Assembly (NCBI GenBank): GCA_021821305.1
Contig: JAKACP010000001.1
Location: forward strand, 641,526-705,525
Source: a bacterium
Lineage (GTDB): Bacteria; Patescibacteriota; Minisyncoccia; Moranbacterales; UBA1568
DNA: 64,000 bases
Direction of reading: 5' to 3'
Of the stretch, positions 6,932-53,351 are shown piece by piece. Positions within the stretch are counted from its first letter, which is position 1. Each line of letters starts with the position of its first letter. Under the pieces are notes generated by a model. The model was not told where the DNA came from. It was given only the letters and a program-made list of their open reading frames with translations, and did not search any database. The position numbers and the translations under genes were made by a program.

Positions 6932-6989
6932 GTCATTCATGATGGATGTCACACGGAGGTTTCCGAACGATCGGAAGCCTCTTTTTTTA

Positions 6990-7172
6990 GTAACTGTTCA
7001 AATTCTCATGTCGAGATGGAATTCGAAAATTTCGAGCGAAAATCATGAAAGTTGAGAAAGGCTACTATGGTAACCTGACGAGACTTGAATGGTTTGCAGC
7101 CGAAATTTTCGGATTCCAGCCGACAAGCGGAATCTTTTCTCTTACTTGTGCGGTGAGAATTTGAACAGTTAC
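6990..7172. mobile_element. MITE-like nonautonomous element: perfect 19-bp terminal inverted repeats (GTAACTGTTCAAATTCTCA) flanked by a TTA direct duplication
   Basis: 6990-7008 gtaactgttcaaattctca; 7154-7172 tgagaatttgaacagttac, an exact reverse complement. tta at 6987-6989 and 7173-7175. Inner inverted pair cgaaaatttcg (about 7026) and cgaaattttcg (about 7121). AT-rich, no ORF. Confidence 0.45.
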
Positions 7173-7672
7173 TTAGGCTCTATTTTGACGCAGGAGCGTT
7201 TTGAGTCACCTCAAGGGTACATCCGGCATCGTTTCCATCACGGCGACACGAAACTCCCCCAATCATTTTTCAAAAAACGGGGGAGGCACGGAGAAGGAGA
7301 AAACGGGAAGCCAGAACGTGAGACATTCATCATCCGTGATATCACGTATCGTCGCGCAGGATCCGCGAGAGATGGATCCCAGGGAGCGGGGTGCCGGCAC
7401 ACGGATATCATATCGGTCATCCATACAGAGACCCGATTTCGCGTCCAGATAAAAAAATATTACCGACAGGGGAGGCACGGCCTGATTTTTCAATAATGCT
7501 TTATCCGGAGTGTTTCGAAAGTATACAATGTCGCATAAGTTACATTTGACGACATGTTAACAATAACACTCGCCCGAGACAAGAGCTCCGAAAAAACGAT
7601 ACCGCTTTCTCCGAAACCGTCATTCCCCACCCAGCGGCTCCCGCTTCATTTCCGGGAATGGAAAAAAGGAAT

Positions 7673-7708
7673 AAAAAAAATCGGGAACGAAATATTCTTC
7701 GTTCCCGA
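7673..7708 (-). terminator. Rho-independent terminator of the GGDEF gene
   Basis: Perfect hairpin tcgggaacgaa-atattc-ttcgttcccga (7681-7708). On the minus strand it is followed by U8 (A-run 7673-7680). Confidence 0.6.
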
Positions 7709-7725
7709 TCACGACTGCCTGCCTG

Positions 7726-11219: not shown

Positions 11220-11377
11220 AGCGCGTCATTTTAGCATCAAAATGGACTGCTGTCACGGATCCTTGATTTCCCCCTGAATCTGTAATACAATCCTCGATGA
11301 GGATTTTTTCCTTGTTTTTGTTCTTTATTTTCTCCGTTAACTGTTCATTGTTGACTCGTAACTGAAATTGGGGAGTA

Positions 11378-11449
11378 GCCAAGCGGTAAGGCAGTGGGTT
11401 CTGGTCCCACGATGCGAAGGTTCGATCCCTTCCTCCCCAGCATTGACAA
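11378..11449 (+). tRNA. tRNA-Gln (anticodon CTG)
   Basis: Hand-folded cloverleaf: acceptor tggggag/ctcccca; D-arm with GG; anticodon stem gtggg/cccac with loop ttCTGgt; variable loop gatgc; T-arm gaagg-ttcgatc-ccttc; discriminator g. CCA is not encoded. Confidence 0.8.
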
Positions 11450-28284: not shown

Positions 28285-28508
28285 CCCAAGATGGCGGTAT
28301 ACTGGAGCCGTATCAAATATCCTTCCCCGCAGAACCCGAGGCGCGAGCCGGGATATGGGGGAAGAGACAATCCTATGACCCATTCCTTTCGAAAAAATCG
28401 AACGCCTTCTTGCCCATAAGCTCGGCGTTTTTTATTTTGTAGCATGGAACAAGCAGCAGACGGCATCGGTTCTCTTCCCCTGCTCCCTGCTCCCCGCTCC
28501 TTACTCCC

Positions 28509-31500
28509 ATGGCATTCGCCCACCTCCACGTCCACTCCCACTATTCCCTCCTCAATGCGCTCCCCAAGATCGATGACCTCGTCGCTGAGGCGCAGAAGTA
28601 CGGGATGGAGGCGCTCGCGCTCACCGACACGTCCAACCTCTACGGCGCGGTCGAATTCTACATCAAGGCGAAGTATGCCGGTATCAAACCGATCATCGGC
28701 GCCGAGCTCTACGTGGTCAAGGATCATACGAGCAAGACCCCGTCCATGGACGACCGTCCGCGGCACACCATCGTGCTGCTCGCGAAGAACGGGACCGGGT
28801 ACAAGAACCTGCTCAAGCTCGTCTCGCACGCCCAGCTCGACGGATTCTACTACAAGCCCCGTATCGACAAGGGTCTTCTCCGGAAATACGGCGAGGGGTT
28901 GATCGCGCTCTCGGGCAACATGACCGGCGAGATACCGGCGCACCTCATCTACGACAACGTCATCCAGGCCAAGGCCTCCGCGATCGAGTATCAGGAGATC
29001 TTCGGCGAGGGCAACTTCTACCTCGAGCTCGGCGCCAACGTCGACTACGAGAATCAGGCCAACGTGAACGAGGGACTCTATCAGATCCACTCGGAAACCG
29101 GCATCCCGCTCGTCGCCGGCGCCGACGTCTTCTACCTGCGTCCCGAGGACCGCGATACGCACGATATCCTTCTCTGCATCCAGAACAACCGGACGGTACA
29201 GGACGAGAGCCGGCCCAAGCTCACGCATCTCGATCTCTCGTTCCGGTCGCCGGAAGAGATGGAGCGCATCTTCAAGGATTTCCCGGACGCGATCGAAAAC
29301 ACCGCGAAGATCGCCGCGGCCTGCGACGTGGAGATCCACCTCGGCGAGACCCAGCTCCCCCACTTCGACGTGCCGGACGGCCTGTCCCCGGAGGCCTATC
29401 TCCGCACCCTCTGCGAGGAAGGCTTCGTCAGGCGCTACGGCGACGCGCCGATCTCCGACGAACAGCGCGAGCGCCTCGAATACGAGCTCGACATCATCGG
29501 CAAGACCGGATTCGCCTCCTACTTCCTCATCGTCCAGGACTTCGTCAACTGGGCGAAACGCGACGGCATCGTCGTCGGCCCGGGACGCGGCAGCGCCGCG
29601 GGATCGTTCGTCGCCTACCTCACCGGTATCACCGACCTCGACCCGATCAAGTACGACCTCCTCTTCGAACGCTTCCTGAATCCGGAGCGCATCTCGATGC
29701 CTGACGTCGATATGGACTTCGCCGACGACCGCCGCGACGACGTGCTCGACTACGTGCGGCAGAAATACGGTGCGGATCACGTGGCGCAGATCATCACGTT
29801 CGGGACGATGGCCGCCAAGGCGGCGATCCGCGACACCGGCCGCGCGCTCGGATTCCCCTACGCGTTCTGCGACCAGATCTCCAAGATGATCCCGATGTTC
29901 ACCTCGCTCGAAAAGGCGGTCGAGGAAGTGCCCGACCTCCGGAAGCTCTACGAGGAGAACCCGGACGCCAAGCGCGTCATCGACACCGCGAAGAAACTCG
30001 AGGGCAACGCCCGCCACGCGTCGGTGCACGCCTGCGGCGTCGTCGTGACCAAGGACCCGGTCGTCGAGTATTCCCCGCTCCAGCACGTCTCGGGCCACGG
30101 CGAGGGCATGGTGACCCAGTACGCCTCGTCGACCAAGATGAGCGTCGTCGAGAAGATCGGCCTCCTCAAGATGGACTTCCTCGGCCTGAAAAACCTCACC
30201 ATCATCCAGAACACCGTCCGGATCATCCGCGCGCTCGGGAAGTTCCCGGACCTGGCTGAACGGCTCGGCATCGATCCCGAATCGGCCTCGGCCTCCGACG
30301 TCATGGACCATATCCCGCTCGACGACGAGATGACCTACCGGCTCCTCCAGGAAGCCAAGACGACCGGCGTGTTCCAGCTCGAATCCGCGGGCATGAAACG
30401 GTATCTGAAACAGCTCCAGCCGACCGTCTTCGAGGATATCATCGCCATGGTCGCCCTCTATCGCCCGGGTCCCATGGAATACATCCCGGACTTCATCGAC
30501 GGCAAGCACGGCCGCAAGGAGGTGAAGTACCTCCATCCGAAACTCGAACCGATCCTCAAGACCACCTACGGCGTGGCCGTGTACCAAGAACAGCTCATGC
30601 AGATCGGTCGCGATCTCGCCGGATTCTCGCTCGGCGAGGCGGACGTGCTCCGCAAGGCGGTCGGCAAGAAGATCAAGGAACTCGTCGCCGAACAGCGCGA
30701 GAAATTCATTTCCCGCTCGGTCGAGAACGGCGTCCCGAAAAAGGTCGCCGAAAAGGTCTTCTCGTTCATCGAACCGTTCGCCGGCTACGGATTCAACCGC
30801 TCCCATGCCGCCTGCTACGCGCTCATCGGCTATCAGACCGCCTACCTCAAGGCGCACTACCCGGCGGAATTCATGGCAGCACTCCTCACGAGCGACCAGA
30901 GCGATACCGACCGCGTCGCCATCGAGATCGCCGAGAGCAAGCAGATGGGCGTCGAGACGCTCCCGCCTTCGGTCAACGAGAGTTTCGAGGCGTTCGCCGT
31001 GATCCCGGAAAAAGGCGGGGCCGATCGGATCCGTTTCGGTTTGAACGCGATCAAGAACGTCGGCCGTCCCGTCGCCGAGGAAATCGTCCGCCAGCGATCG
31101 GTAGGCGGGAAGTATACCGATCTCGAAAATTTTCTCGAACGTATCCAGGGCAAGGATCTCAACAAGAAATCCCTCGAGGCGCTCGCCAAGGTCGGCGCGC
31201 TCGATGAGTTCGGCGAACGCAACAGACTGCTCGAAAACATCGACGCGATACTCCTCCATTCGAAGAACATCGGCAAGATCCGCGACACCCACCAGGACAG
31301 CCTCTTCGGAGGGCTCACGCTCGAGGCGCCGAAGGTCCGCATGAAGGATGCCCGGGAATCGACGAAGAAGGAGCGGCTTTCGTGGGAAAAGGAACTGCTC
31401 GGCCTCTACGTCTCCGACCACCCGCTTACCGAGTACGTAGGCTACCTGGCCGAAGCGGCCACATCGGTGAAGGAGCTCGAGAAGCATCCCGACGACGCGC

Positions 31501-32048
31501 AGGTCCGCTTGGGCGGCATCATCGCCGCGGCCAAGAAGATCTATGCGAAAAACGGAAGCGAGATGTACTTCGTGACCCTCGAGAACATAGGCGGGCGCGT
31601 CGAGCTCATCGTCTTCCCGCGGGTGGCGGCGCAGACGGAGAATTTCTGGAAGGAGGATGAGATCGTCCTCGTCGAGGGAAAGGTCAACCGCAAGGACGGC
31701 GACGCGAAGATACTCGTCGATACCGCCCGGAAGCTCGATATGGACGAGGTGAACCGCTTCCGGTCCCTTCAGGCGACGAAAACGAAGCGCTCGGCCGATG
31801 CGGCGCAGGAGCGGGAAGAAAACGGACACGGGGAGGAAACGGCCCTCATCCTGCATCTCGATCCGGAAAAAGGGATGGCGGCGGTTGACGGAATCTCCAA
31901 AATCCTCGAGACTGCCCCGAAAGGGACCGCCCGCGTCTTCGTCTCGATCGGAACGGATCGAATCCGGACATCATTCGCGATTACGCCTGGCGAATCGATA
32001 CTGGAGCGATTAAAAAGTGTAGGAGGTGTGGAGCGAATAGAGTCATGA
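28509..32048 (+). CDS. dnaE: DNA polymerase III alpha subunit
   Basis: N-terminal PHP domain (FAHLHVHSHYSLLNA), palm/fingers motifs (GRGSAAGSFVAYLTGIT...PDVDMDF), OB-fold C-terminus; 1179 aa. Confidence 0.95.
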   Translation: MAFAHLHVHSHYSLLNALPKIDDLVAEAQKYGMEALALTDTSNLYGAVEFYIKAKYAGIKPIIGAELYVVKDHTSKTPSMDDRPRHTIVLLAKNGTGYKNLLKLVSHAQLDGFYYKPRIDKGLLRKYGEGLIALSGNMTGEIPAHLIYDNVIQAKASAIEYQEIFGEGNFYLELGANVDYENQANVNEGLYQIHSETGIPLVAGADVFYLRPEDRDTHDILLCIQNNRTVQDESRPKLTHLDLSFRSPEEMERIFKDFPDAIENTAKIAAACDVEIHLGETQLPHFDVPDGLSPEAYLRTLCEEGFVRRYGDAPISDEQRERLEYELDIIGKTGFASYFLIVQDFVNWAKRDGIVVGPGRGSAAGSFVAYLTGITDLDPIKYDLLFERFLNPERISMPDVDMDFADDRRDDVLDYVRQKYGADHVAQIITFGTMAAKAAIRDTGRALGFPYAFCDQISKMIPMFTSLEKAVEEVPDLRKLYEENPDAKRVIDTAKKLEGNARHASVHACGVVVTKDPVVEYSPLQHVSGHGEGMVTQYASSTKMSVVEKIGLLKMDFLGLKNLTIIQNTVRIIRALGKFPDLAERLGIDPESASASDVMDHIPLDDEMTYRLLQEAKTTGVFQLESAGMKRYLKQLQPTVFEDIIAMVALYRPGPMEYIPDFIDGKHGRKEVKYLHPKLEPILKTTYGVAVYQEQLMQIGRDLAGFSLGEADVLRKAVGKKIKELVAEQREKFISRSVENGVPKKVAEKVFSFIEPFAGYGFNRSHAACYALIGYQTAYLKAHYPAEFMAALLTSDQSDTDRVAIEIAESKQMGVETLPPSVNESFEAFAVIPEKGGADRIRFGLNAIKNVGRPVAEEIVRQRSVGGKYTDLENFLERIQGKDLNKKSLEALAKVGALDEFGERNRLLENIDAILLHSKNIGKIRDTHQDSLFGGLTLEAPKVRMKDARESTKKERLSWEKELLGLYVSDHPLTEYVGYLAEAATSVKELEKHPDDAQVRLGGIIAAAKKIYAKNGSEMYFVTLENIGGRVELIVFPRVAAQTENFWKEDEIVLVEGKVNRKDGDAKILVDTARKLDMDEVNRFRSLQATKTKRSADAAQEREENGHGEETALILHLDPEKGMAAVDGISKILETAPKGTARVFVSIGTDRIRTSFAITPGESILERLKSVGGVERIES

Positions 32049-32196
32049 AATCACAAAGCCCAGAACACAAACATCCAAACAAAGCACAACTTTCAAAACA
32101 CGGACATCAATTCCGTACGTTTGTGCTTTCATAGTTTGTGTCCTGTATTTTGTTTGGCATTTTGTGTTCTGAAATCTGTGTCTTTATCTTGAACGT

Positions 32197-33120
32197 ATGT
32201 TCGTCATCCTCGGCCCCACTTCTTCCGGAAAATCCGACTATGCCATACGGCTGGCCAAAAAGCTCGGAGGCGAGATCGTCTCCGTCGACTCGCGGCAGGT
32301 CTATCGCGGGATGGATATAGGAACCGGTAAAATCCCGAGGGATTTTACCGGAAATTACAAATTACAAATTACAAATACCAAACGACGGAATAAAGACTTA
32401 TTTTATTCCGAAGGAGTGCGGCATCATCTCCTCGACGTCGCGAGTCCGAAACGCGACTACAACGTGACGCACTTCCTCCGTGACGCGGAAAAGGCGATCG
32501 CGGACATCGAGCGGCGCGGCAAGGTCCCGATCCTCTGTGGCGGGACGGCGTTCTGGATCGAGGCGCTTCTTCTCGGGACATCGTTTCCCGAAGTGAAGCC
32601 GGATAAGAAACTGCGCGAACGGCTCGGAAAACTTTCCATCGAGGAACTTTTCAAAACGCTCGAAGAAAAAGACCCGGAGCGGGCCGCGACGATCGACCCT
32701 CGCAACAAGGTGCGCATCATCCGCGCCCTCGAGATCGTCGAGGCGCTCGGAAAAGTCCCGAGTATAAGATATGGGATACGAGATACGAGATACGAAAGTG
32801 CGAAAATTTTCGCACTTTCTCCACCGAAAGAAATCCTCCATGCCCGCATCGAAAAGAGACTCAAGGAAAGGCTTGAAAAAGGGATGATCGACGAAGTCAA
32901 ACGCCTCCGCGAGGAAGGCGTCTCATGGAAACGATTGGAGGGATTCGGCCTCGAGTACCGCTGGTGCGCACGATTTCTCCAGGGAAAGATCTCCCGCGAA
33001 GCGATGGAAGCGGAACTCCTGAAAGAGAGCGGACGCTACGCCAAGCGCCAGCTCACCTTCCTCCGCCGCCTCGAACGGAGCGGGCTCGGAATCGAATGGA
33101 TCACGGACATCCCCTCCTGA
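32197..33120 (+). CDS. miaA: tRNA dimethylallyltransferase
   Basis: VILGPTSSGKSDYAIRLA P-loop, SVDSRQVYRGMDIGTGKI, HHLLDV. Contains two AT-rich repeat/palindrome patches in frame. Confidence 0.85.
   Translation: MFVILGPTSSGKSDYAIRLAKKLGGEIVSVDSRQVYRGMDIGTGKIPRDFTGNYKLQITNTKRRNKDLFYSEGVRHHLLDVASPKRDYNVTHFLRDAEKAIADIERRGKVPILCGGTAFWIEALLLGTSFPEVKPDKKLRERLGKLSIEELFKTLEEKDPERAATIDPRNKVRIIRALEIVEALGKVPSIRYGIRDTRYESAKIFALSPPKEILHARIEKRLKERLEKGMIDEVKRLREEGVSWKRLEGFGLEYRWCARFLQGKISREAMEAELLKESGRYAKRQLTFLRRLERSGLGIEWITDIPS
32324..32376 (+). repeat. in-frame AT-rich patch in miaA: 13-bp perfect inverted repeat (ccggtaaaatccc/gggattttaccgg) followed by (aattaca)x3 heptamer tandem repeat
   Basis: Palindrome 32324-32351; heptamers 32353-32373; encodes GTGKIPRDFTGNYKLQITN. 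Confidence 0.8.
32775..32817 (+). repeat. in-frame AT-rich patch in miaA: (gatacga)x3 heptamer tandem repeat followed by a 22-bp perfect palindrome aagtgcgaaaattttcgcactt
   Basis: Heptamers 32775-32795; palindrome 32796-32817; encodes GIRDTRYESAKIFAL. Confidence 0.8.
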
Positions 33121-33150
33121 GGGCCTTCCCGGTATCCCACGGGATCGGTC

Positions 33151-34623
33151 CTAGTCGAGCTTCTTCTTCAGCAGTCCGGTCACCACATTCGGATTGGCCT
33201 TCCCCTTGGTTTCTTTCATGACGGCGCCGATGAGGAACTGGAACGCTTTCTGCTTCCCCTCCTTGAAATCGGCGACGGACTGGGCGTTCGCGGCAAGGAC
33301 GGTATCGATGATGGCGCCGAGCTCTCCCTCGTCGCTCACCTGGGCGAGATTGAGCCGCTCCACGACGTGTGACGGATCGTTGTCGCCCCCTTTGTACATC
33401 TCCTCGAGCACGGTCTGCGCGGCCGAGGAATTGATCTTCCCCGTCGCGGTGATCATGATGAACTCGGCGAAATTTTCCGGGGTGATCCTGATATGCCGGA
33501 TGTCCTCCCCGGTCTTGGAGAAGTGCCGGCGCAGTTCGGTGATCATGTAGTTGGCGGCGAGCTTGCAGGCCTTTTCGAACGGGATATCCGCTTCGTGCGC
33601 GTCGTCCTTTTCCTCGAGCTCGGACACGACCGCCTCATAGTAGGCGGCGAACTCGCGCTCGGCGGTGAGGAGCGCCGCATCGGATTCCGACACGCCGAAC
33701 GACTCCCGGAACCGTTTCGCCTTGGCATCGGGCAGTTCGGGAAGCGACCGACGGAGTTCCTCGACGGAGTTTTCGGTGAATTCGAACGGAGGGATATCGG
33801 GCTCGGGGAAATACCGGTAATCGTGGGCGGATTCCTTCTTGCGCTGGGAAACCGTGGCCTGCCGCCCTTCGTCCCAGCCGCGGGTCTCCTGGACGAGTTT
33901 CTCGCCCGAGTCGAGAGCCTCCGTCTGCCGTCTGATTTCATACTCGATGGCACCGGCGACCGACTTGAAAGAATTGAGGTTCTTGACCTCCACCTTCGTG
34001 CCGGAAAGCCTCTCCGTCCCTTCCGGGTGGAGCGAGATGTTCACTTCGCAGCGCATCTGTCCTTTTTCCATGTCGGCATCCGAGATGTCGAGGTAGCGGA
34101 GGATCTGCTGGAGCTTCTGGCAGAACAGCCTGGCGTCCTCGCCGCTGTCGATATCCGGCTCGGTCACGAGTTCCATCAAGGGCACGCCCGCGCGGTTGAG
34201 GTCGACGAGGGTATAATCCGCGCCGGCGGGGTGCGCCGATTTTCCCGTGTCCTCTTCCATGTGGATGCGGGTGATATCGACGGTCTTTCCCGGACGGATT
34301 TCGAGTTTCCCCTTCTCGCAGAAGGGTTCATCGTACTGGGAGATCTGATACCCCTTCGGAAGATCGGGATAGAAATAGTTCTTACGGTCGAATTTCGAGT
34401 GAAGCCGCAGCTCGCAGCCGAGCGCGAGACCCGTCCGCTGGACGGACTCGATCGCTTTCCGGTTCGGCGTGGGCAACGTCCCCGGCTGGCCGGTGCAGAC
34501 GGGGCAGATATGGATGTTCGGCTCCTTCTCGAGCCCGCGGCCGTTTTTGCACGCGCAGAACATCTTGGATTCGGTCTTGAGTTCGGCGTGGACTTCCATG
34601 CCGATGACTGGGAGGTATTTCAT
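33151..34623 (-). CDS. gatB: Asp-tRNA(Asn)/Glu-tRNA(Gln) amidotransferase subunit B
   Basis: MKYLPVIGMEVHAELKTESKMFCACKN...ICPVCTGQPGTLP. ATG at 34623; the track start at 34638 is a GTG. Confidence 0.9.
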   Translation of the reverse strand: MKYLPVIGMEVHAELKTESKMFCACKNGRGLEKEPNIHICPVCTGQPGTLPTPNRKAIESVQRTGLALGCELRLHSKFDRKNYFYPDLPKGYQISQYDEPFCEKGKLEIRPGKTVDITRIHMEEDTGKSAHPAGADYTLVDLNRAGVPLMELVTEPDIDSGEDARLFCQKLQQILRYLDISDADMEKGQMRCEVNISLHPEGTERLSGTKVEVKNLNSFKSVAGAIEYEIRRQTEALDSGEKLVQETRGWDEGRQATVSQRKKESAHDYRYFPEPDIPPFEFTENSVEELRRSLPELPDAKAKRFRESFGVSESDAALLTAEREFAAYYEAVVSELEEKDDAHEADIPFEKACKLAANYMITELRRHFSKTGEDIRHIRITPENFAEFIMITATGKINSSAAQTVLEEMYKGGDNDPSHVVERLNLAQVSDEGELGAIIDTVLAANAQSVADFKEGKQKAFQFLIGAVMKETKGKANPNVVTGLLKKKLD

Positions 34624-34672
34624 ATAGGGTAAGTACACGTATCACGGATGTCGGATGTCGGATGTCTCGGCA

Positions 34673-41475: not shown

Positions 41476-41520
41476 CTGTTCAATATTTCCCCTTATGTAT
41501 GCGGTGAGATATTGAACAGG
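41476..41520. repeat. inverted repeat/hairpin related to the MITE terminal repeats (ctgttcaatatttcccc ... ggtgagatattgaacag)
   Basis: Arms 41476-41492 and 41503-41520 with a 10-nt loop. The right arm gcggtgagatattgaacag is close to MITE right TIR gcggtgagaatttgaacag. Confidence 0.45.
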
Positions 41521-51451: not shown

Positions 51452-51689
51452 GTTTCCGTGATATGGGCGACCTGCCCCGTGAAATCGCCAAAGCGATATT
51501 TTACGGGGTGATGCAGAAATTTCGGATATTGGCTTGATTCATAAGTATTTCAAGACTTTTCCAAGCCTAGCGCAAAAGATGAAAAAGCGGAAGCATCTAC
51601 GCATCCGTTCCTGTTTTGGAATTTGAAGTTTCGGATTTGTGATTTGTTTGGCTTTTGTGATTTGAAATTTGTCATTTCCGCGAAGCGGC

Positions 51690-53351
51690 TTACCATTCCC
51701 CTTTCTCCGGATGACCCTCGACGCTCGAGGCGACTTCCGGCTGTCGGAGCACCTTCCCGAGCACCCATCGCTTGAGCGATCGGAATTCCTCGATACGGAG
51801 CCACCAGCTCGCGATGAGGAAGGCCGCGAGACCGACCGAAACGCCGAAGAGGAGCTGGAGGAACACCTCCGCGAACGTGTCGAGCGGCGACGGTGCGAGG
51901 ATGAAGACCGATTTGGAAAGCTGGGCGATCGCCCCGGCGAATACCGTGGCGAGCACGATCCGCATGCTTCCGGAAAAAAGATCGGCGTCGTTCCATCCCG
52001 ATACCCGCTTGCGCAGGAAAAAGAGAAGGAGTGCGAAGTTGACGATGCTCCCCGCGGAAAAAGCCATCGCGAGCGCGTCGACGTCGAAGTAGGGAAGGAG
52101 GAGCGGCATGAGCGCGATGTGGACGGCCTCGGCCGCGAGCGCGATATAGAGAGGCGTCTTCGTATCCTGGATCGCGTAGAATCCGCGGGCGAAGAGCGGG
52201 ATGAGCCCCTGTGCGAAGAGACTCACCGACAGCCAGGCGAGAACGCCGAAGGTCGCGATGGTGTCCTCCCAGTCGAACTGCCCGGACCCGAGAATGACGC
52301 GGACGAACTGCGCGCGGAAGATGATGAGCAGCATCGATATCGGCACGACGAAGAAGAGGATCCTCCGCGCCGTGGCGGCCAAGGTCGAGAAAAAATCCCG
52401 ATCGTCCTTCTTGGAAGCGGCGAGCGAGAGCATCGGGAACGCGGCGAGCGAAAACGCGACCGCGAAGAGTCCGATCGGAATGCTCTGGATATTGGAAGCG
52501 AGCGTGAAGACCGCGAGACTTCCGGAAGCGAGCGAGGACGCGAATACCGTGGTGAGAAGGAGTCCGATCTGATTCGCCGCCATCCCGAGCGAACGCGGTA
52601 TCATAAGCATCGTCACGCGACGGACCATGGGGTCGAACGAGAGCTTTCGGCGGAACGCACTGAGCGGGAAGCCCGAGGAGCGGACCGCGGGGATCTGCAC
52701 GAGCATGTGGAGGAACGCACCCGCGACGACCCCCCATGCCAGTCCGGAGACGCCCATTTCCGGAACGAGAAAGATCACTCCGGCGATGATGCCGAGATTG
52801 TAGAATATCGGCGCGAACGAGTACGCGACGAACCGGCGGAACGAGACCAATACCCCTCCGAACACCGCGCTTATGCCGAGCAGTATGGGAGAGAGGAGCA
52901 TGATGCGAGTCAGCTCCGCTACTGCCGCCTGTTTGTCCGGGGAAAAGCCCGGCACGAGCACCGTGACAAGCCATGGCGCGACGGCGAACACCATGACCGA
53001 CAACGCGCCGAGGAGTATGATCATCCACTCGAGCATCCCGGTCGCGAGCTTCCATGCCTCTTTCTCCTTCCCTCGGGCGACAAGATCGGTGAAGACCGGG
53101 ACGAAAGCCGCCGAGAGCGCTCCCATGACGAGAAGATTGTAGAGGAGGTCGGGAATCCGGAAAGCCGCATAGTAGGCGTCGAGGACGTCGCCCGCGCCGA
53201 ATTGCGACGCGAGGAGCCGGTCGCGCAGGAACCCGAGGATCCGGCTCACGACGCCGGCGGCCGCGATGATGAACGCGGCGGCCGCGATCGTCTTGGCCGG
53301 CGCATTCGTCCATCCGTGAAGGGACCGCATGAGTTTCTTGAGGAGTGCCAT
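51690..53351 (-). CDS. murJ: lipid II flippase MurJ
   Basis: MviN/MurJ N-terminus VSRILGFLRDRLLASQFGAGDVLDAYYAAFRIPDLLYNLL; 14 TM helices. Confidence 0.85.
   Translation of the reverse strand: MALLKKLMRSLHGWTNAPAKTIAAAAFIIAAAGVVSRILGFLRDRLLASQFGAGDVLDAYYAAFRIPDLLYNLLVMGALSAAFVPVFTDLVARGKEKEAWKLATGMLEWMIILLGALSVMVFAVAPWLVTVLVPGFSPDKQAAVAELTRIMLLSPILLGISAVFGGVLVSFRRFVAYSFAPIFYNLGIIAGVIFLVPEMGVSGLAWGVVAGAFLHMLVQIPAVRSSGFPLSAFRRKLSFDPMVRRVTMLMIPRSLGMAANQIGLLLTTVFASSLASGSLAVFTLASNIQSIPIGLFAVAFSLAAFPMLSLAASKKDDRDFFSTLAATARRILFFVVPISMLLIIFRAQFVRVILGSGQFDWEDTIATFGVLAWLSVSLFAQGLIPLFARGFYAIQDTKTPLYIALAAEAVHIALMPLLLPYFDVDALAMAFSAGSIVNFALLLFFLRKRVSGWNDADLFSGSMRIVLATVFAGAIAQLSKSVFILAPSPLDTFAEVFLQLLFGVSVGLAAFLIASWWLRIEEFRSLKRWVLGKVLRQPEVASSVEGHPEKGEW

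Follow-up and report, generated by a model that had tools for sequence, protein, structure and literature searches.

Heptamer arrays and host-derived palindromes in two variable loops of miaA from a Moranbacterial genome

Many bacteria have an excess of heptameric simple sequence repeats (SSRs), which in the account given in PMC4692102 (citing Mrazek 2007) lie mostly between genes; the same account relays a tentative proposal that slippage over the polymerase footprint produces the excess of heptamers. A heptanucleotide repeat within a coding sequence is known from neuO of Escherichia coli K1, which is out of frame in 66% of genomes and measurably heterogeneous within a culture (PMC13001214). 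Rickettsia palindromic elements (RPEs) are dispersed, multi-copy families of ~150 bp with a conserved peptide of their own, and set a precedent for in-frame colonization of housekeeping genes (PMC10969869). Perfect hairpins can also be created and maintained by template switching, a process that mimics compensatory change and has been described mainly for RNA genes (PMC8794818). Here we analyse miaA, the gene for tRNA dimethylallyltransferase, in a 64-kb stretch of Moranbacterial DNA (contig JAKACP010000001.1; hereafter the window, 59.5% GC overall). A first-pass annotation had singled out an AT-rich patch in this gene, composed of hairpins and heptamer repeats. That observation is real and far beyond chance, and the interpretation attached to it is partly supported. 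The explanation we favour as probable is that two permissive loops of MiaA gather the products of heptamer slippage together with palindromes left by template switching, and that selection keeps them in frame.

The gene encodes a full-length MiaA. Its product matches the Pfam family IPPT (PF01715) over the full length of the profile (5.9e-61, positions 1–242 of 243), and the 206.7 bits of that match, against a curated cut-off of 23.6, place it in the MiaA family. The P-loop GPTSSGKS is present and the invariant columns of an alignment with 30 relatives are kept. Named homologs are MiaA proteins of Candidatus Moranbacteria and Patescibacteria, and MiaA structures in the PDB are matched down to 1.7e-44. 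The miaA gene hosts two modules, which we call Site 1 and Site 2 (Table 1); the second was not listed in the first-pass annotation.

Site 1 comprises two perfect hairpins and the heptamer array between them, all in frame across positions 32324–32410, and adds ~20 residues to a loop. The 13-bp inverted repeat described at first pass is indeed perfect, its arms being separated by two nucleotides (GA) and not by the three (gag) originally given. The 5′ arm of this hairpin 1 consists of the conserved codons T43-G44-K45-I46-P47, while the 3′ arm encodes (R)DFTG, with which the variable loop begins. The three tandem heptamers reported earlier are there as well, translated as NYKLQITNTK, and are predicted to be unpaired in the fold; the translation quoted at first pass is correct. 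In hairpin 2, also correctly recognized beforehand, the 5′ arm (RNK) lies inside the insert and the 3′ arm comprises the conserved codons F-Y-S-E. The drop in GC is confirmed, at 29% for positions 32340–32409 against 59% for the remaining miaA, a value at or below the intergenic range of the window (29–61%, most spacers 37–55%). As RNA, the 106-nt segment folds into a stem, an unpaired array and a second stem with a predicted free energy of −29.3 kcal/mol, compared with −13.9±2.8 kcal/mol for shuffled sequences (z = −5.6; 0 of 200 as good).

Site 2 (positions 32755–32819) brings no net gain of length relative to solved MiaA structures. At its 5′ edge is an imperfect, weak hairpin, assigned with low confidence from the minimum-free-energy fold of 32750–32835 (z = −4.2). 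The heptamer array follows, and the module ends in hairpin 3, the 5′ arm of which (ESAK) closes the variable loop, the 3′ arm being the conserved β-strand codons I-F-A-L-S.

Table 1. Coordinates of miaA and of the repeat and hairpin features within it (positions in the window)
Feature	Position	Strand	Description
miaA (tRNA dimethylallyltransferase)	32197-33120	+	intact 307-aa open reading frame (ORF); hosts the Site 1 and Site 2 modules
Hairpin 1 (Site 1)	32324-32351	+	arms 32324-32336 / 32339-32351; 13 bp, 100% complementary; CCGGTAAAATCCC-GA-GGGATTTTACCGG
Site 1 array	32352-32382	+	(AAATTAC)x3.6 by Tandem Repeats Finder (TRF), 100% match to 32376; degenerate on to 32382
Hairpin 2 (Site 1)	32386-32410	+	CGGAATAAA-gacttat-TTTATTCCG; 9 bp, 7-nt loop
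Weak hairpin (5′ edge of Site 2)	32755-32777	+	GTCCCG (conserved K-V-P codons) / TGGGAT (first repeat units)
Site 2 array	32767-32795	+	(AGATACG)x4.1 by TRF; translation RYGIRDTRY
Hairpin 3 (Site 2)	32794-32819	+	perfect 26-nt palindrome, no spacer; GAAAGTGCGAAAA/TTTTCGCACTTTC

Neither the hairpins nor the arrays are at the frequency expected by chance. A census of perfect hairpins in the window (stem of at least 9, loop of at most 10) returned eight, five of them intergenic and terminator-like and three intragenic, the latter all in miaA; three of eight falling within the 924 nt of this gene has a Poisson P of 2.4e-4. Arrays of period 7 with at least 2.8 copies numbered five, where composition-preserving shuffles gave 0.13, and those outside miaA are intergenic or located in 5′ leaders.

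Alignment shows that the Site 1 patch was inserted in frame into a loop of which solved MiaA proteins have only a short version, as the first-pass annotation had supposed. Alignment to the Staphylococcus epidermidis enzyme (3d3q) opens a 20-residue gap opposite residues ~50–69, and relatives without the Site 1 array are 11–13 codons shorter at this point. Orthologs do not carry the same residues in GC-rich codons, so a chance low-GC patch, the null explanation offered at first pass, can be set aside. Moreover, the 30 relatives (62–100% identity) are hypervariable at two sites, one after GTGK(I/V)PRD and the other after LGKVP, where some have no insert and others one of up to several tens of residues. 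Some of these are translated heptamer arrays with a 7-residue period (NYKLQITNTK, RYKIQDTRYK, ISNSQFLIS, SHKSQVESHKS); others are translated palindromic elements (CHPELVEGS, CHPGLDPGS, RHCEESSTKQS...). An AlphaFold model built from the shallow 30-sequence alignment (mean predicted local distance difference test score, pLDDT, 74.7) is uncertain in the neighbourhood of the two sites: pLDDT stays under 50 over residues 33–87, conserved flanking positions among them, and is 57 over residues 191–200.

Heptamers prevail well beyond this gene copy. Among close relatives 20 of 27 tandem arrays have a period of 7, and at 158 other miaA loci, mostly from Patescibacteria, that is, from the Candidate Phyla Radiation (CPR), 67 arrays are of period 7 against at most 19 for any other period. 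Period 7 hence exceeds both the other periods and the shuffles, as in heptameric SSR over-representation elsewhere. In distant lineages (37–52% identity) the miaA arrays again fall at residues ~49–64 and ~169–214, which are the same two loops, here without flanking hairpins. The density of heptamer arrays per kb is 0.103 in miaA, 0.039 in other long ORFs and 0.277 outside long ORFs. Since neighbouring genes contain 24 cases of in-ORF arrays, the phenomenon is general and not unique to miaA. Units of the AAATTAC and AGATACA types form long arrays in many environmental genomes, where they are mis-annotated as genes: ~400 short metagenome 'hypothetical proteins' (46–130 aa; P0121–P0240) that have no Pfam domain are translated (AAATTAC)n- or (AGATACA)n-type arrays. 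A search with translated perfect arrays retrieved only short hypothetical ORFs of this sort, that is, long arrays elsewhere, and not arrays within other real genes.

These arrays resemble the bacterial heptameric SSRs gathered in PMC4692102 (Mrazek et al. 2007; cyanobacterial STRR; Xanthomonas/Nostoc GGGNATC) in being the dominant SSR class, in differing from one close relative to another in unit sequence and length, and in that some form inverted pairs. That account describes its arrays as intergenic and G-rich, whereas those of miaA are A/T-rich and short, sit in frame in a housekeeping enzyme, are flanked by host-derived palindromes and recur at two protein loops across a phylum-level radiation. 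Our literature searches found no paper linking CPR with SSRs.

The miaA loci of 11 relatives reveal how the arrays vary over shorter distances; at 75–100% identity, relatives have other heptamers at Site 1 or none. Ten (L161–L170) were codon-aligned and L171 was inspected apart; scans of public genome contigs and of metagenome contigs yielded no close relatives (best 69% and 49%, respectively). The Site 1 array (AAATTAC)x3.6 is common to the window and L161–L165. In L166 and L168 its place is taken by (AAGATAC)x4.3, whose unit and frame match those found at Site 2 in other relatives, and in L167 by a degenerate (AATTTCT)x4.3. No tandem array was detected at Site 1 of L169 or L170, L169 having a single AGATAC remnant. 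At Site 2, nine of the ten aligned relatives have four AGATACA/G-type units that take up an unchanged aligned length; the array is perfect in L162 (x4.4) and L166 (x4.1). Against this background miaA is mosaic, with sharp blocks of identity between the window and L162, L165 and L166. Identity to L162 is 100% over codons 1–135 and ~70% thereafter; L166 is 96–100% identical on both flanks of Site 1, and its array is different. Such blocks indicate, on the pattern of identities, frequent homologous recombination between co-existing lineages, and different arrays between near-identical flanks argue for the exchange of loop 'cassettes' by recombination.

The closest comparison is between three independent, near-identical assemblies, the window, L163 and L164, all of which have identical array lengths. 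The window and L163 differ at 4 positions in 6924 nt, and two of the four are within the Site 2 array. At 32779 and 32781 both L163 and L164 depart from the window such that unit 2 is turned into a copy of unit 1, with no change in length. This linked two-base conversion shows that the miaA arrays are mutationally active at the level of the unit; the consensus sequences show frame-preserving outcomes only.

The hairpins are of host origin on one side. Each of the three perfect hairpins has one arm of conserved codons (TGKIP, FYSE and IFALS) and the other in the variable insert, and the conserved arm is present also in relatives that lack the insert. Hence the palindromes arose locally out of host sequence and were not imported as terminal repeats. 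A search of the window with both hairpin arms and the array, allowing up to 2–3 mismatches, found self-matches and chance-level 2-mismatch matches only; the look-out for further copies of the 13-bp palindrome that was suggested at first pass thus found none in these 64 kb. All three inverted repeats have spacers of 0–7 nt, the adjacent reverse-complement arrangement that characterizes template switching.

Hairpin 3 is the most telling case. In the window, L163, L164, L165 and L169 the sequence of its 3′ arm is att ttc gca ctt tct; L161, L162, L166, L168 and L171 have atc atc gcN ctc Nat at this place. The 5–6 changes are clustered, every one of them creates complementarity to the adjacent 13 nt, and two are non-synonymous, I to F and D/N to S in the conserved strand. 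Such a cluster would be the expected footprint of a single template-switch event. Hairpins 2 and 3 erode in some relatives. Of the 13 pairs of hairpin 3 only 11 are left in L165 and L169, where it is apparently not maintained, and hairpin 2 retains 7 of its 9 pairs in L161. At the hairpin 2 boundary of L171 we find a hairpin in a different register, ATGCCTTC/GAAGGCAT; the boundary hairpins of Site 1 thus recur with registers that differ by lineage.

Hairpin 1 behaves differently: no close relative has lost it, and both of its arms have changed. It is CCGGTAAAATCCC/GGGATTTTACCGG in the window, L162, L163, L164, L165 (12 of 13 pairs) and L167, CCGGAAAAATCCC/GGGATTTTTCCGG in L161, and AAAAGTCCC/GGGACC(T/C)TT in L166 and L168 (12 and 11 of 13 pairs). 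In L169 it is CAAGGTCGC/GCGACCTTG, in L170 CCGGCAA/TTGCCGG and in L171 AAGGTCT/AGACCTT. Across eight distinct, related sequences 87.5% of cells are paired and four pairs have changed on both sides; the covariation score is 0.253 against 0.116 for shuffles, none of 500 shuffles reaches it and slid controls score far below it. Hairpin 1 has no RNA-specific signature, since its A-C mismatches match its G-U pairs in frequency. One consequence is that the synonymous choice of codon at K-(I/V) in effect dictates whether F or L stands two residues past the invariant D. Persistence of the hairpin could be due to selection for the structure or to repeated template-switch 'repair' of an existing palindrome.

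From these patterns we infer the following sequence of events. The two hypervariable loops, after GTGK(I/V)PRD and after LGKVP, would be structurally permissive, and in Moranbacteria and other CPR bacteria they would fill with unconstrained AT-rich DNA of intergenic character by means of two replication errors. Slipped-strand synthesis, which in these genomes would strongly favour 7-nt units, would seed short arrays and turn them over. Short template-switch (fold-back) events beside the arrays would then write the reverse complement of adjacent conserved codons into the loop, leaving perfect hairpins with one host-coding arm, and the same process may later re-perfect them. Purifying selection on MiaA presumably removes variants with frameshifts or stops, so that only in-frame, stop-free versions are seen. 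The surviving inserts, which we take to be neutral, would be translated into a flexible polar loop, and homologous recombination between co-existing lineages would shuffle the loop 'cassettes'. The presumed fold-back events share with template-switch mutations in PMC8794818 the adjacent reverse complement, the substitution cluster attributable to one event, the perfect stems and the 'compensatory' changes. They would differ in affecting a protein-coding loop and in rewriting amino acids, two of them in a conserved strand.

Several observations weigh against this combination of slippage, template switching and neutral drift. Permissiveness alone explains poorly why the perfect intragenic hairpins of the window are confined to miaA, and the density of arrays in miaA is ~2.6-fold that of other long ORFs at the same loci. 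Over the 96 nt of the Site 1 region the window and L161 share 92% identity, and up to 96% in the most similar stretches of 15 codons, against 74% for the remainder of miaA; conservation of this order looks odd for neutral DNA unless it reflects a recent recombination patch. In hairpin 1, pair 9–28 occurs as U-A, A-U and C-G and pair 13–24 as A-U and G-C, and a compensatory pattern like this is the product that selection on structure would be expected to leave. The template-switch footprint, finally, is a putative one, read from the aligned relatives.

The same observations feed the principal alternative, that hairpin, unpaired A-rich array and hairpin together make up a functional RNA or DNA element selected in the clade. 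Such an element could act as an endonuclease entry site that sets the half-life of miaA mRNA, or as a translation pause. We rate this as rather unlikely. The covariation of hairpin 1, the repetition of the stem, unpaired array and stem architecture at both sites of miaA, and the fact that Site 1 is the best-conserved nucleotide segment in the comparison with L161 all speak for it. What tells against it is that hairpins 2 and 3 decay in relatives without compensation, that the arrays of distant CPR lineages have no flanking hairpins and that the substitutions in hairpin 1 are not those of an RNA helix in particular. Its covariation, drawn from eight related rows, is moreover of the kind that template switching mimics (PMC8794818). 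Searching Rfam with 31900–33250 at E≤1 gave only two sub-threshold chance hits, and neither a sigma-70-like promoter nor a terminator-like site is found at the miaA modules; both results count against a selected structure. Separately, the idea that hairpin 2 with its loop GACUUAU mimics a tRNA anticodon loop was rejected on inspection, as it has no U33 or A36-A37-A38 pattern.

Phase variation was the reading first proposed for the patch: gain or loss of one 7-nt unit would frameshift miaA and toggle the i6A37 modification of tRNA, in the manner of neuO. We regard it as improbable. Units that are not a multiple of 3 do lie inside the coding sequence, turnover at the level of the unit is seen at Site 2 between near-identical strains, contributing half of the few differences over 6.9 kb, and neuO supplies the precedent (PMC13001214), the likeness extending to a 7-residue periodic peptide and to being in frame at certain copy numbers. 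However, the miaA tracts are short, at 3.6–4.4 units, while those of neuO have 3–53 and most commonly 20 (PMC13001214) and are mostly out of frame. The arrays of miaA have identical copy numbers in the three near-identical assemblies, are conserved down to 75% nucleotide identity and are always in frame in the relatives examined, among which we found no copy-number polymorphism. At Site 1 four relatives of 75–90% nucleotide identity share the copy number of these assemblies, and the sole array change seen is length-neutral, which leaves the proposed switch without support. That no out-of-frame miaA allele was seen is weak evidence, the homologs having been ascertained as intact proteins.

A second suggestion made at first pass, that the patch is the footprint of a mobile palindromic element of the RPE or MITE (miniature inverted-repeat transposable element) type, is more doubtful still. 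True palindromic elements are found in frame at the same two loops of relatives. L161, a Moranbacterial locus of 75% nucleotide identity, carries at Site 2 (L161 3583–3708) an element of ~85 nt, GTCATTGCGAG...CTCGCGATGAC, with a fold of −33 kcal/mol, which is in frame and translated as GRHCEESSTKQSRNSWIATSFDKNQKTRDD; blastn of this insert against all compared loci gave only its self-match. Inserts of the CHPELVEGS/CHPGLDPGS type occupy one or both loops in the homologs P0018, P0022, P0024, P0025 and P0029. Inserts like that of L161 may represent RPE-like colonization of CPR proteins, and the patch in the window shares with RPEs (PMC10969869) that hairpin-capable DNA resides in frame and stop-free in a permissive surface region, tolerated by the fold. 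Long arrays of the same heptamer units also exist elsewhere in metagenomes. In the window, however, the arms are host codons and not the termini of an element, there are no further copies of arms or array, and no target-site duplication is evident at the insert. Unlike the RPE families, the insert is ~70 nt long, single-copy in the window and built of a microsatellite with local inverted copies of host codons.

The window does contain a MITE-like family of its own. A 185-nt element at 6989–7173 ends in inverted repeats of 20 bp that match perfectly (AGTAACTGTTCAAATTCTCA/TGAGAATTTGAACAGTTACT) and encloses an imperfect palindrome of 49 nt; a shorter related copy (CTGTTCAATATTTCCCC/GGTGAGATATTGAACAG) is located at 41476–41519. 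This family is unrelated in sequence to the miaA hairpins. A low-GC stretch of 794 nt (6932–7725; 47% GC), delimited by a terminator-like hairpin of 12 bp at 7680–7709, has no ORF that convinces. Of the kinship with intergenic repeats that had been proposed, what stands is that the heptamer array is of the same kind as the AT-rich intergenic arrays nearby; the link to the palindromic family does not.

Ribosomal bypass of the T4 gene 60 kind, from the GGA codon 52 in hairpin 1 to the GGA codon 73 with the insert left untranslated, would fit the matching GGA codons that flank the insert and the position of the take-off codon at the hairpin end, and would yield a product of canonical loop length, but we reject it as very improbable: take-off is not followed by a stop codon, neither the window nor any relative has an insert that closes or shifts the reading frame, whatever its length, and the landing codon is not conserved, being GGC or GGT in L161, L167 and L168. 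A diversity-generating retroelement variable region was also rejected, the 64-kb window having neither a template repeat nor another copy of the array or of the insert; no search for a reverse transcriptase was made.

In the window, miaA lies between dnaE (28509–32048) and the convergent gatB (33151–34638). The dnaE–miaA spacer (32045–32187) is a 143-nt imperfect palindrome whose 44-nt arms are 73% complementary and consist of A-rich heptamer-like units (ACAAAGC, CCAGAAC, ACAAACA...) and their T-rich complements. Upstream of miaA only ~30 nt of spacer are present in L166 and L168, and immediately 5′ of its start are (TTTGTGT)x12 in L167 and (TTGAAAA)x8 in L169. Elsewhere in the window, (CCCTGCT)x4.4 at 28478–28508 adjoins the dnaE ATG, and (CGGATGT)x3.1 at 34645–34666 makes up most of the 34-nt spacer between a dUTPase-like gene and the gatB start, unchanged in L163. 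(AAAACAC)x4.6 and (AAAGACC)x2 at 1712–1756 follow an ORF that ends at 1712. The nearest match in the window to the AAATTAC array of miaA, on the minus strand with 2–3 mismatches, is a degenerate intergenic heptamer array at 51600–51690 (GATTTGT/ATTTGAA type), which has the motif TTTGTTTGGCWTTTTGTG in common with the spacer at 32149–32180. AT-rich repeats are present too in the 631-nt intergenic region that contains tRNA-Gln (CTG) at 11369–11441.

If slippage and fold-back copying do account for the patch, it is a clean natural example of the growth of a protein loop, in which a microsatellite and fold-back copies of codons are written in, translated and reshuffled by recombination. It also documents the dominance of 7-nt repeats among CPR tandem arrays and their in-frame position within genes, of which our literature searches found no description. 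For annotation, low-GC patches of this kind in CPR genes should not be taken for frameshifts, introns or mobile elements. If, on the other hand, hairpin 1 is selected, it would be a rare conserved nucleic-acid structure that dictates the residues of an enzyme, pairing K-I with D-F and K-V with D-L. We entertain as a long shot that the stem, array and stem module is a clade-conserved device of miaA, a rare frameshift switch or a control on the mRNA, which tunes tRNA i6A37 and hence the decoding of UNN codons in these bacteria with their reduced genomes, and that, more widely, a CPR-specific replication signature of heptamers and fold-backs systematically writes new loops into housekeeping proteins. 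Were this true, heptamer slippage and fold-back copying in CPR would be an engine of loop innovation.

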